From Alphaproteobacteria bacterium (GTDB lineage Bacteria > Pseudomonadota > Alphaproteobacteria > UBA9219): a stretch of 32,000 bases of DNA. Positions 16,240 to 19,814 of the stretch are shown here, in pieces. The position numbers were made by a program, and so were the translations under genes. Each line of letters opens with the position of its first letter. The stretch's first letter is position 1. The DNA lies in the NCBI GenBank assembly GCA_049276515.1, contig JBASWO010000070.1:1-32000 (forward strand), given 5' to 3'. The notes under the pieces were generated by a model. The model did no database searches. It saw only the letters and a list, made by a program, of their open reading frames with translations, and was not told the DNA's origin.

Positions 16240-16318
16240 TTGTCGTTAACCATAGTCAGGTCTTGTCGCTACCAAAAGCACTGTTTACCATCTCAAGCTT
16301 CAAAAGCCGGAGCATTTT

Positions 16319-16783
16319 ATGATGATGACACCAGATGAACTTTTTCAGGATGTCGCGGATCGGACACTCAGTCGTTCGGCGTGGGGCTGCCTTACAGTAG
16401 AAGAGGCAAGAGAATTCCGCGGCCATCTTGAAGCGTTAAGAGGCAGGAATATAGGGTTCAATTACTCGGAGCCCGATAGGCCAGTCGATGGTCATGAGAT
16501 GGGAATGATTGTCCATTTTTCCAATGATCCAAGGAAATCGGGAAAAATATGGTTCGAGAAGGATACAATTCAATTTACAACTCAACCCCATTTTACCTAT
16601 TCAAACTGGTCAGCAGCACGCACGGAGCAGATGGGTTCTAGTCCTGTGGTAACAATTCCGCGAGACCAGAACTGGATAGAAACGGTCATGCGATCTGTTA
16701 TTGAGCAGGTTTTCAAAGAATATGGCCCTGGATCCATCTGGCTAACAAACGGTAAGCCTAGGCTTCAAGTAGTGCCTGCGTGA
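16319..16783 (+). CDS. Hypothetical protein, orphan cluster gene A (154 aa)
   Basis: GGAG lies 6 nt upstream of a triple ATG. The protein looks soluble and has no motif I recognise. Confidence 0.55.
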   Translation: MMMTPDELFQDVADRTLSRSAWGCLTVEEAREFRGHLEALRGRNIGFNYSEPDRPVDGHEMGMIVHFSNDPRKSGKIWFEKDTIQFTTQPHFTYSNWSAARTEQMGSSPVVTIPRDQNWIETVMRSVIEQVFKEYGPGSIWLTNGKPRLQVVPA

Positions 16784-16868
16784 GTATTGTACAGTTAAGA
16801 AGACAAAAGATGCGGGTTCTATATTTGGAAAGATTGTTTCATTCTAAGAGAATTTTATAGGTCTTAAT

Positions 16869-18380
16869 ATGATTGAAGGTACTTTTCAGACATTTGATGA
16901 TTGGGCTCGAGGATTTCCTGATCGTATGGATAAAAAGTTCGATCTTATTGTAAATCCAAAACCTGCAGTTCTTGAGGCTATTTGGAATTTAGATACATCA
17001 GCCGATAAAGCGCTTTTGCCACATATCGAAAGATGGATGGCTCATTTTTATCGGCAGTGGGATATCAGATCACTCAAAGATTTCAACGGCATCCTTGAGG
17101 AAGCTGGATTACCTGAAGCCATCAAGCACTATCAAGAAGATCCATCACTCATTTATGATGGTATTCTTGATACTCTCCAAGCTGCCAAAACAACCCTATT
17201 ACCTCGTCGTAGAAGAATGCAGACGTCCGCGCCTTCGCCTTTGGATAGAGCGGGCGTAAATGGCTTTGTGGCTCAAATTAAACAGCAAAAACAGCGCAAA
17301 GACCGTCGTGATCCTACGTATGTTAAGCTACGTGATGAGAAGTTTATAGGATCAGGCGAGGCAGAATTACTGCATGAAGCGCCTACATTCCGTATTTATC
17401 ATTTGAAAACAGCCGCAGCCTGCAAAACTTATTTTAATCCCGAAACCTACAGTAGGGATGCTTTTGCAATTGAGACAGAGACGGGTGCCATCTTTAAATA
17501 TGAATTACCCACGACTTATATGACGGATGAGCGTGAGCGGCCTTATAGCTATAAGCAAATCGAAACCCTTTTTCCGGGCTTCTTTGAGATCGTAAAACCA
17601 ACACTTATTAAAGAGCTTGCTAAAGTTGAGCCGGGTGATCGCAACTATTTTCTGACTTCTATTGCATCAACGCGGCGTTACTTTTCAATCTGGAGTGATT
17701 TAGCAAAAGCAGAAGATGTTGCTGCATATTTTAAAAATCTCTATCTCGGTGCTCCTAAGAGTGAACGTTGGGCCTATACAGATTCTGTAAAGATCTTACA
17801 GACCATGTCTCTATTTCCAAATGCTGCTCAACAGCTCTCAGGGGAAGATGTTCGCACTGTTTTCAACCATATCGTGCGCTTGCGACAATGGGGTGCGGCA
17901 CAAGAATATTTAGCGCGCGCTGTAACGGTTAAAGAATGGCGTGATGCAATTACAGCAGAAGATATAGCGCCCGTGTTTGATGGGTTATCGCGGGCTCGCA
18001 GCTATGGTGCGCGCGAGATGTGTATGGCTTATATGTTTGTTTTAGGCGCTCAGCATCCGAAATGGCTCACAGGCAATGAAGCAAAATATTTGCCAGCTAC
18101 GCTTAAGTATCTATCAAAAGATCATATGCTTTTCTTTAAACGTGCACGTTACAGAACTGCCGATCCAGATTGGCCAAAGGTCAAAATTCTTTTACGACGC
18201 GCTGAAAGCTATGCCCCTTGGCGTGCCCAAATAACACCTGATCTATTGAGCGATATTGAGCCCAATCCAAGTGATAATCGTGTCAAAACACTTTGCTTGC
18301 CACAATTATGGGCGCGCTTTACGGCGGCTTTCCGTAACGACTCCACGCCACGGGCACCCCTTGCGGAATTAACTCCTTAA
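16869..18380 (+). CDS. Hypothetical protein, orphan cluster gene B (503 aa) with internal helical repeats
   Basis: This is a 1.5-kb uninterrupted ORF. It has an Arg/Lys-rich patch (LLPRRRRMQ...KQQKQRKDRRD) and three copies of the [AG]ED[VI]xxxF motif 38-44 aa apart. It shows no nucleotide-binding or nuclease motif. The SD is weak. Confidence 0.65.
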   Translation: MIEGTFQTFDDWARGFPDRMDKKFDLIVNPKPAVLEAIWNLDTSADKALLPHIERWMAHFYRQWDIRSLKDFNGILEEAGLPEAIKHYQEDPSLIYDGILDTLQAAKTTLLPRRRRMQTSAPSPLDRAGVNGFVAQIKQQKQRKDRRDPTYVKLRDEKFIGSGEAELLHEAPTFRIYHLKTAAACKTYFNPETYSRDAFAIETETGAIFKYELPTTYMTDERERPYSYKQIETLFPGFFEIVKPTLIKELAKVEPGDRNYFLTSIASTRRYFSIWSDLAKAEDVAAYFKNLYLGAPKSERWAYTDSVKILQTMSLFPNAAQQLSGEDVRTVFNHIVRLRQWGAAQEYLARAVTVKEWRDAITAEDIAPVFDGLSRARSYGAREMCMAYMFVLGAQHPKWLTGNEAKYLPATLKYLSKDHMLFFKRARYRTADPDWPKVKILLRRAESYAPWRAQITPDLLSDIEPNPSDNRVKTLCLPQLWARFTAAFRNDSTPRAPLAELTP

Positions 18381-18402
18381 TCCACTTTTTGTGCAGTTGC
18401 AC

Positions 18403-18418
18403 TGTGATCAATGTCACA
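18403..18418. promoter_or_regulatory. Perfect CRP-type palindrome TGTGA-TCAATG-TCACA (site 1)
   Basis: Read directly from the sequence: both 5-nt arms match the CRP/GlxR-class consensus TGTGA-N6-TCACA exactly. The site lies 23 nt after the gene B stop. Confidence 0.6.
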
Positions 18419-18433
18419 AAAGTTTGATGTGCT

Positions 18434-18449
18434 TGTGATATCCCTCACA
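18434..18449. promoter_or_regulatory. Perfect CRP-type palindrome TGTGA-TATCCC-TCACA (site 2)
   Basis: Read directly from the sequence. Its centre is 31 bp from the site 1 centre, about three helical turns, and about 116 bp upstream of the gene C ATG. Confidence 0.6.
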
Positions 18450-18557
18450 AAGAACTGCATTCACTTTTAGCTTTCAGCCCGCTTTGAGCGACTTCTGCCG
18501 CTGGCTTCTCTTTATCCATGCTCCAATTGATTGGACAAACGATCAAGGAGGTGAAGC

Positions 18558-19814
18558 ATGATGAGTAATCGAGAGGAGCATGAAAGAGAGACCGAAGACT
18601 TAGAGAGCATGTTAAAGCAAGTCTTTAGCGATGCTATTCTTATTCAAACGCAATATTCGACGCGAATGAATGATATAGGCGATCCTAAGCCTCATGCTTG
18701 GGAAATGGGCTACCAAAGTGACCATGCATATCTTGAGATTGACCTCCCCGAAAGCAGAACGCATGAGATTGTCGAGAAGCTCAGAGATTCTTTGCGCTTT
18801 GCAATCAAGGAAACCAAGAAGAAAAAGAAAGGTCCTAGAGCCTTTCTGATGAGCCTTTTGCCATCGCCCAATGAGGTTATTAAGGGCGGTAATGGTATTT
18901 TCGTTTATATCGAGCCGCTCAGACAGCTTGCACAAGCAGGCGTCAGAATGCCTGGGCAATTGACCAAATTGATGCAGGACATTTTGGATTGTGAGGATGG
19001 TTGGATCCAGCTTAAAGAAACAATGGTCATGCGCGCCAACCAGAAAATTTTAGGTTTTGCTGATGATCAAAAAGCATGGGGCTTTGATTTTTGGGAAGAC
19101 ACGCCAGACCGAAAAGGTGTGCAGCTCCATTTGAATGTTGATCTTGAAATGCCTCAGGGACTTTTGCGTGGTACGGAGCATGAGGGCAAAAAATACAGCG
19201 AAGCTTTGCAGCCCATCAAAGATGAAATCTGTAAACGCGCAAAGGCATTAGGTATTGAAGAGTATTTTCAATATGACAGCTATCATTACGGGACGCATGG
19301 CGCCATTTATGGAGAATGGATGGTCTTACGCGAGCCTAACATAGAAAAACTATTGTCTAAATTGGATAGGCTTGAGCAACGGCCTGGCCATCTTGAAAAT
19401 ACCCGAACTCTTTTCAGAGACGTGATTTTGGCCTTACCAGCAAAATCAGTCGCTCCTCATTGGCCCATTGGGTTTTTTGAAGAGGTAGATGAGCGATATC
19501 CCATAACTGACGATATGCAGGGAGGTGTATTGCACCAAATGCAAGAAGAGAGACGCATTTTTATGGATGAGCTTTGGGCGCGACCAGAAAATGCAGCCTG
19601 GAAGGCTATTGTTGAAACTTTTCAAAAAGACGGCGTATTTATTAGCGATGCTATTGAGATGATAAAAAATCCTCCCGAAGGATGGGGCGATTTCTGTCAG
19701 GAGATGAAGGGTAATTTATTAAACGCCTGGCCTCTTTTAGCGTCTAAATTTGAGGAGCCAGAGGTGCCGGGGGCTCTCCTTAGAGAACAGACCAAAGCCC
19801 AACCAACTCTTTAA
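18558..19814 (+). CDS. Hypothetical protein, orphan cluster gene C (418 aa)
   Basis: A strong SD, AAGGAGGTG, lies 5 nt upstream of ATG ATG. The protein has an acidic N terminus, a KKKKKG tract and is Trp-rich. I recognise no motif. Its 3' end overlaps trpS by 35 nt. Confidence 0.7.
   Translation: MMSNREEHERETEDLESMLKQVFSDAILIQTQYSTRMNDIGDPKPHAWEMGYQSDHAYLEIDLPESRTHEIVEKLRDSLRFAIKETKKKKKGPRAFLMSLLPSPNEVIKGGNGIFVYIEPLRQLAQAGVRMPGQLTKLMQDILDCEDGWIQLKETMVMRANQKILGFADDQKAWGFDFWEDTPDRKGVQLHLNVDLEMPQGLLRGTEHEGKKYSEALQPIKDEICKRAKALGIEEYFQYDSYHYGTHGAIYGEWMVLREPNIEKLLSKLDRLEQRPGHLENTRTLFRDVILALPAKSVAPHWPIGFFEEVDERYPITDDMQGGVLHQMQEERRIFMDELWARPENAAWKAIVETFQKDGVFISDAIEMIKNPPEGWGDFCQEMKGNLLNAWPLLASKFEEPEVPGALLREQTKAQPTL

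Follow-up and report, generated by a model that had tools for sequence, protein, structure and literature searches.

Three lineage-restricted orphan genes at a putative rearrangement junction between rplL and trpS in an undersampled lineage of Alphaproteobacteria

The stretch of DNA considered here (hereafter the window) consists of 32,000 nt of contig JBASWO010000070.1 from an Alphaproteobacteria bacterium, and this work concerns the interval between the terminator of rplL and the 3' end of trpS, where three same-strand open reading frames (ORFs), which we will refer to as genes A, B, and C, encode proteins of 154, 503, and 418 amino acids (aa). The interpretation that we favor, and to which we assign roughly an even chance, is that these are three separate lineage-restricted genes that were collected at an old rearrangement junction, in an alphaproteobacterial lineage of which few members have been sampled, and that they form no demonstrable joint system. 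One of them, gene B, encodes a soluble member of a rare, unnamed, chromosomally encoded protein family. The coordinates of the three ORFs, which had been proposed in the initial annotation of the interval, were confirmed, and the features of this region are as follows.

15811..16188, plus strand: rplL (ribosomal protein L7/L12), the final gene in the nusG...rplKAJL block; 77–86% identity to RplL of the related loci L004 and L005
16210..16241, plus strand: rplL intrinsic terminator, a GC-rich hairpin AAAGGCGGGGTTTAAACCCCGCCTTT at 16210–16235 followed by TTTATT
16319..16783, plus strand: gene A, ORF of 154 aa; Shine-Dalgarno sequence GGAG at 16309–16312
16869..18380, plus strand: gene B, ORF of 503 aa
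18391..18460, plus strand: palindromic control region, with an outer inverted repeat GTGCAGTT / AACTGCAT around both of the following boxes
18403..18418, no strand assigned: CRP-type box 1, TGTGATCAATGTCACA, an exact match to TGTGA-N6-TCACA
18434..18449, no strand assigned: CRP-type box 2, TGTGATATCCCTCACA, an exact match to TGTGA-N6-TCACA
18545..18553, plus strand: Shine-Dalgarno sequence AAGGAGGTG of gene C
18558..19814, plus strand: gene C, ORF of 418 aa
19780..20796, minus strand: trpS, with Pfam domain tRNA-synt_1b; convergent with gene C and the start of a conserved murJ-trpS block

Based upon the lengths and codon usage of their ORFs, and in the case of B also upon its full-length remote homologs, genes B and C are real genes. 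Frames of these lengths are expected by chance only about 2e-9 (B) and 3e-7 (C) times per window, and the possibility that either is a chance ORF was rejected, as their lengths are far past this expectation. The earlier statement that two of the ORFs are too long to be fortuitous thus holds for B and C; the length of A, for which the chance expectation is about 0.66 per window, is not significant. With a codon model, for which the training set was 17 confident genes from the window, B and C scored +0.24 and +0.14 bits per codon, respectively, and A −0.11, compared with +0.21 to +0.57 for the reference genes. The codon usage of B and C was host-like in the annotated frame only, and for C this frame was clearly the best. 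The codon score of A was the best of its six frames, yet it was lower than those of all reference genes. Gene A is plausible as a gene, albeit insecure and weakly supported, because its Shine-Dalgarno sequence lies six nt upstream of the start and because without A a gap of 680 nt would be left in this position.

All three of these genes are orphans of unknown function, as had been suggested earlier, and no recognizable motif of the kinds that were looked for (nuclease, NTPase, or membrane) is present in their products. Searches of A, B, and C against Pfam, NCBIfam, PHROGs, and PADLOC gave no match, with nothing below E = 0.04 for PHROGs and PADLOC, and PDB sequence searches, using both the single proteins and two B-family profiles (A1 and A2), gave no match below E = 0.3. 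No 19-aa window exceeding a Kyte-Doolittle value of 1.6 was found in any of the three proteins, compared with 78 such windows in MurJ, which served as a control; as no membrane segment or signal peptide is present in A, B, or C, the possibility that they are membrane or Sec-secreted proteins was rejected. No paralogs of the three genes were detected within the window, and an Rfam scan across the interval yielded only terminator-driven noise. Scans of genome collections and of JGI metagenomes, viral, plasmid, and phage sequences revealed no relatives of A, B, or C, including none for C in the JGI metagenomes, plasmids, and phages and none for A or C in viral contigs. In a word-indexed search of 5.8 billion proteins, A and C matched only themselves. 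Gene A is identical to MFY9287696.1 (WAO98_04260), a hypothetical protein from an "Alphaproteobacteria bacterium" metagenome-assembled genome (MAG) at NCBI, and C matches only its own copies, on a contig of the Logan assembly (L001) and in the hypothetical NCBI protein MFY9287698.1 (WAO98_04270). The protein encoded by C is soluble and acidic (net charge −19), and the mean predicted local distance difference test score (pLDDT) of its single-sequence AlphaFold2 model was 37.

Gene B is the only one of the three for which relatives were identified. The same word-indexed search returned nothing for B, not even the protein itself, which is absent from a portion of the protein collection because gene B was assembled on none of the Logan contigs retrieved. 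An exhaustive phmmer search of 1.84 billion cluster representatives, however, revealed nine related proteins of 483–606 aa, with E values from 1.4e-13 to 6.7e-4. These proteins align with aa 34–492 of B, which is nearly its full length, and they show 19–24% identity. In the alignment, W357 and W451 are invariant and R358 is near-invariant; the full alignment was too divergent to be used for locus scans. In this family, D-P-S-x-D-K-x-Y...R-W-F is conserved toward the N-terminus, R-D-x-x-F...L-L-H...F-R-x-Y-x-I and E-L-x-x-G-A-R-Y-R are conserved in a predicted beta region in the center, and P-E-W-R-x-x-I-x-x-E-D-I-x-P-L-F recurs in a C-terminal helical part. No match to Pfam or NCBIfam, and no consistent match to PHROGs, was obtained for any of the ten family members. 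A basic insertion of approximately 20 residues at aa 413–434 of B (FFKRARYRTADPDW), which precedes the last conserved W-x-x-[LV]-K helix, is shared only with the relative P0005 (LYRQARSRRVEQKQPGRDW), and its restriction to these two proteins suggests that they form a subfamily.

B is predicted to begin with a helical part, which is followed by a small beta region (approximately aa 154–213) and by a C-terminal helical repeat region. About five copies of the motif W-R-x-x-I-x-x-E-D-I were recognized in it, at aa 273–288, 319–335, 354–370, 396–412, and 448–463, and the internal repetition was also evident from Smith-Waterman comparison, in which the off-diagonal score was 58, compared with 36 ± 5 for shuffled sequences, and from a repeat at the DNA level (D1; 17691–17722 and 17937–17968). 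The AlphaFold2 single-sequence model of B, whose mean pLDDT was 49 with only aa 321–380 averaging 62–79, was helical over aa 228–489 and contained four short strands at aa 165–212. When this model was compared with the PDB using Foldseek, nothing significant was found (E 0.09 or worse), the top matches being solenoids of the TPR and HEAT type. These observations lead us to infer that the C-terminal half of B is a helical repeat (alpha-solenoid) built from the W-R...E-D-I motifs, and, in view of the repeats and the predicted secondary structure, it is most likely that B functions as a soluble helical-repeat binding, scaffold, or adaptor protein rather than as an enzyme. Its predicted resemblance to known alpha-solenoids (TPR, HEAT, Sel1-like) consists of an all-helical C-terminal half in which the motif recurs every 35–50 residues, and of the best, although non-significant, fold matches. 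It differs from them in that no Pfam repeat family was detected in the ten family members, and the confidence of the model is low. To our knowledge, the TPR, HEAT, Sel1, and ankyrin repeats have motifs other than W-R...E-D-I.

The genomic contexts of the B relatives are informative as to whether these genes belong together. Contigs were retrieved for eight of the nine relatives (all except P0010) and also for P0012, a longer member of the P0003 cluster, and on every one of them the B-like gene was solitary among unrelated, mostly housekeeping genes. Its neighbors were, in different cases, bamE (with or without an OmpR-type regulator) and an H+-pyrophosphatase gene, as in the closed 1.94 Mb "Rhodospirillales bacterium" MAG CP060260.1; an ABC1 kinase gene and ntrX-ntrY; a 670-aa orphan and ftsH-tilS-tol/pal; pstB and an unknown gene; a GGDEF-EAL gene and lpxD-acpXL-type genes; or exbD-exbB and flagellar genes. 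The relative flanked by bamE and the H+-pyrophosphatase gene was present as the same protein on 11 contigs from several samples. On the contigs retrieved, the B-like gene, which alone among the three has traceable counterparts, is thus never found in a cassette, and the most economical view of this rare family is that its genes are solitary and vertically held. Searches with A and C by tblastn against 178 fetched loci (2.19 Mb) gave nothing below E = 0.3. Co-occurrence of these genes outside this genome, the lack of which had been named beforehand as one part of what would refute the proposal of a module, was therefore found neither on the contigs of eight of the nine B relatives nor by tblastn. 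In regard to regulatory genes near these relatives, a divergent OmpR-type response regulator is located 139 bp upstream of P0008 in three metagenome contigs (L089, 1111–2154; L091, 4868–5911; L092, 4934–5977), and in the corresponding 1.2-kb gap of CP060260.1 (8819–10000 of the locus L088) no gene was called. The GGDEF-EAL and NtrX genes noted above adjoin two other members of the family.

The location of the genes was examined by comparison with related loci. The gene order preceding the interval is tRNA-Trp, nusG, a TPR/GT9-like gene on the minus strand, and then rplK-rplA-rplJ-rplL, and murJ is the next gene after trpS. In alphaproteobacterial loci with enough sequence, rpoB was found within 2.5 kb after rplL in 44 of 52 cases, and no rpoB is present in the window; the expectation that it should follow rplL, and its absence here, are thus borne out. 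The nearest informative relatives are L004 and L005 (75% RplA identity), as the sequence of the closest MAG (L002, 89% RplA identity) ends just past rplA and is uninformative on the region downstream of rplL. Both L004 and L005 also lack rpoB after rplL. In L005 (12727–20693) rplL is followed by a GT9-like gene, a radical-SAM gene, and a complete 5S-23S-tRNA-tRNA-16S operon on the opposite strand, and in L004 (3849–7944) by genes for a large terminase of phage or gene transfer agent type and a portal protein. The adjacency of murJ and trpS is retained in 48 of 80 related metagenome loci, and the content beyond the 3' end of trpS in such loci is variable, never including rplL or any A-, B-, or C-like gene. 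Because L004 and L005 carry different genes where rpoB is likewise missing, and because the trpS 3' side is variable, the cluster appears to be situated at an old, lineage-wide rearrangement junction of the nusG-rplKAJL and murJ-trpS blocks whose content varies. The possibility of an insertion into an intact rplL-rpoB locus was rejected, since the nearest informative relatives also do not have rpoB after rplL.

Neither the site nor the cluster is as exceptional as was initially thought. The break is common to L004 and L005, each of which has unrelated genes there, and about six more ORF stretches without a Pfam match are present in the same 32 kb. These stretches (127–325 aa) are found at 1082–2059 on the plus strand and at 2066–2725 and 7105–7503 on the minus strand, with further ones at 9625–10446, 23207–23930, and 27851–28468, all on the minus strand, and they are scattered among housekeeping genes, which indicates that this genome contains orphan genes commonly and in places other than the rplL-trpS interval. 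Between nusG and rplK, a gene for a 505-aa TPR protein whose C-terminal part is GT9-like (11923–13440, minus strand) interrupts the usual secE-nusG-rplK order; it is also present in L002 (65% identity) and L005 (50%), and this insertion provides a marker for the clade.

In regard to the boundaries of the interval, the rplL-A and C-trpS junctions were confirmed at 100% identity in the Logan assembly of run SRR28002555, in which contig L082 covers positions 15578–16888 and contig L001 positions 18396–20162. The gene called as rplL on L082 matches Pfam Ribosomal_L12. The rplL terminator was identified from an inverted repeat (I3), from a terminator-like match in the scan, and from the sequence itself. 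The first 19 nt of L001 correspond to the Nextera mosaic-end adapter AGATGTGTATAAGAGACAG, an assembly artefact, and strain variation at the 5' end of this contig was rejected, the mismatch being due to the adapter. The spacers between A and B and between B and C are 85 and 177 bp, respectively. Gene C and trpS overlap convergently by 35 nt (19780–19814), so that C runs, over its final 11 codons, antisense to the region for the trpS C-terminus, and this overlap leaves no space for a terminator of either gene.

The composition of the cluster is that of its host. The initial annotation described a drop in GC content in the interval and took it as a hint of foreign origin. The GC contents of A, B, and C are 47.3, 44.2, and 44.6%, respectively, and that of the cluster is 44.4%, compared with 52.1% for rplL, 46.6% for trpS, and 46.8% for the window. 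The dip is thus real, but it is small, and GC contents no higher than these are found elsewhere in the window. In terms of tetranucleotide usage, the cluster deviates from the rest of the window by z of 0.6–0.7, the largest deviation (z 2.9) being that of the ribosomal-protein operon. No integrase, adjacent tRNA, or meaningful flanking repeat was found at the cluster, where only short repeats at the level expected by chance were detected, and the nearest tRNA (10729–10804) is 5.4 kb away. A foreign origin is therefore not sustained, and a prophage or genomic-island origin was rejected in view of the native composition and the lack of mobile-element hallmarks. Orphan genes at bacterial synteny breakpoints are the known situation that the cluster resembles, in that it lies at a junction of two blocks, its counterparts in relatives vary in content, and its genes have few or no homologs. 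It differs in its host-like composition and lack of a mobile-element signature, features which make it unlike a recent genomic island.

The proposal that gene C has its own regulatory region and a near-ideal Shine-Dalgarno sequence agrees with what was found upstream of it: the latter is located at 18545–18553, and the B-C spacer contains two exact CRP-type boxes and a hairpin. The boxes are 31 bp apart from center to center, i.e., three helical turns, and lie 109–155 bp upstream of the start codon of C. Exact copies of TGTGA-N6-TCACA are expected 0.05 times in the window, and two or more were seen in 0 of 100 shuffled sequences. No other exact or one-mismatch site is present in the window, and no exact site was found in 2.19 Mb of other loci. 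The CRP/FNR-family regulators of alphaproteobacteria often use other half-sites, e.g., TTGAT-N4-ATCAA for FNR/FixK. The sequence TGTGA-N6-TCACA is the consensus used for CRP in Escherichia coli and Klebsiella (PMC3105977, PMC5025149). The similarity of the control region to the CRP operators of Enterobacteria thus consists of two exact 16-bp matches upstream of C; the differences are that the host is an alphaproteobacterium and that none of the genes of the window was recognized as encoding a cognate regulator. The region from 18391 to 18460 could accordingly be a tandem CRP/FNR-type operator, a terminator hairpin for B, or both.

That this region acts only as an RNA hairpin, terminating or stabilizing the transcript of B, and is not a protein-binding operator, seems to us possible, though it is the less probable view of it. 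As RNA, positions 18391–18460 form one hairpin (−25.1 kcal/mol, z −2.4) that begins 11 nt past the stop codon of B and is followed by a broken, partly T-rich tract (TTCACTTTTAGCTTT), and the outer inverted repeat carries the symmetry past both boxes. A hairpin, however, does not need an exact TGTGA-N6-TCACA in each of its arms, and two such sites 31 bp apart are improbable by chance. In addition, the T-tract is interrupted and starts 4 nt from the stem, for which reasons the terminator scan was not passed. In either case, the possession by C of expression signals of its own argues for a separate transcription unit.

A different view of the three genes, which we regard as unlikely, is that A, B, and C are independent effectors that are exported by a non-Sec route (e.g., type IV) and act against a host or prey cell, the repeats of B binding the target. 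Such a role would be consistent with the orphan status and rapid divergence of these genes, with their lack of signal peptides and membrane segments, with the predicted helical-repeat architecture of B, with the small genome (1.94 Mb) of one carrier of a B relative, and with the many other Pfam-less ORFs among the housekeeping genes of the window. The last 30 residues also carry a net positive charge (+1 to +6) in nine of the ten B-family tails examined, with +2 or more in eight relatives (P0003 and P0012 sharing one tail), and in these respects, viz. soluble orphans with mostly Arg/Lys-rich tails, the proteins resemble type IV secretion system effectors with positive C-terminal tails, such as the Vir proteins of Agrobacterium and the Beps of Bartonella. 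However, the tail of B itself is nearly neutral (+1) and that of one further relative is −4, secretion-system genes were detected neither in the window nor next to the B relatives examined, and no eukaryote-like domain, and no BID or other known effector domain, was recognized. The functions encoded elsewhere in the window (amtB, PHO4, an oligopeptide ABC transporter, and exoD) are also those of an ordinary free-living bacterium.

The initial annotation viewed A, B, and C as one undescribed multi-gene module. That they form such a module, for example one that acts in conflict, defense, or toxin-immunity, is now improbable. The placement of the three genes on the same strand, with gaps of only 85 and 177 bp, and the fact that all of them are unknown, would fit with such a module. 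However, A and C have no relatives, the B relatives are always solitary where their contigs were retrieved, and no co-occurrence was found; C has a separate control region; and neither a PADLOC or PHROG match, nor a nuclease, NTPase, or membrane motif, nor any mobile-element hallmark was detected. A known defense system was rejected, as there was no PADLOC match. There is likewise little to commend the suggestion that the interval is recently acquired or decaying, with A a spurious ORF and B and C remnants: it fits at best with A, whose codon score is below the references and whose length is within chance, and it could draw upon the lack of close orthologs and the 35-nt extension of C across the end of trpS, which could suggest the loss of an original stop codon of C, but B and C are long intact frames with host-like codon usage and native composition, B retains the family motifs over its full length, and C has a near-ideal Shine-Dalgarno sequence and two perfect operator-like boxes.

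According to the interpretation that we favor, i.e., three separate genes collected at an old junction, A and probably also B would be transcribed from a promoter located after the rplL terminator, and the palindromic region following B may also end the A/B transcript. Gene C would be transcribed alone and would be switched by a CRP/FNR-family regulator that responds to a cyclic-nucleotide or similar signal; this conditional control is suggested by the two boxes. The product of A, expressed or not, would be a small soluble protein. Several observations weigh against this interpretation. Three adjacent orphans on the same strand are also what a functional cassette would be expected to look like, and, as close relatives are unsampled, the absence of co-occurrence is weak evidence. 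No CRP-family or other cyclic nucleotide-binding protein is encoded in the 32-kb window, the boxes could instead be the arms of an RNA hairpin, and no promoter was detected in a sigma-70 scan, so that the transcription units are inferred only. Further, the structure models of B and C are poor (pLDDT 49 and 37, respectively), and the scaffold role suggested for B rests upon its secondary structure and repeats. A bolder proposal, which we advance as speculation with a small chance of being correct, is that B is the founding member of a "PEWR-repeat" family of small-genome Alphaproteobacteria, acting as a translocated effector or as a sensor or scaffold in a new pathway, which in this lineage would have recruited the de novo or very fast-evolving genes A and C as partners in a local module, the output (C) being gated by a cyclic-nucleotide-responsive CRP-type regulator.

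If the interpretation of three separate genes is correct, it would mean that the conserved synteny of the ribosomal-protein and RNA polymerase genes can break and that the break point gathers lineage-specific genes, which would be useful for annotation but unsurprising. What is new is the B family, for which no Pfam or NCBIfam model exists and which comprises ten clusters, all from contigs of the alphaproteobacterial type, with a distinctive predicted W-R...E-D-I helical repeat. Additionally, the perfect tandem CRP-type sequence upstream of the orphan gene C, a candidate operator, provides a handle on the conditions under which this gene may be expressed.

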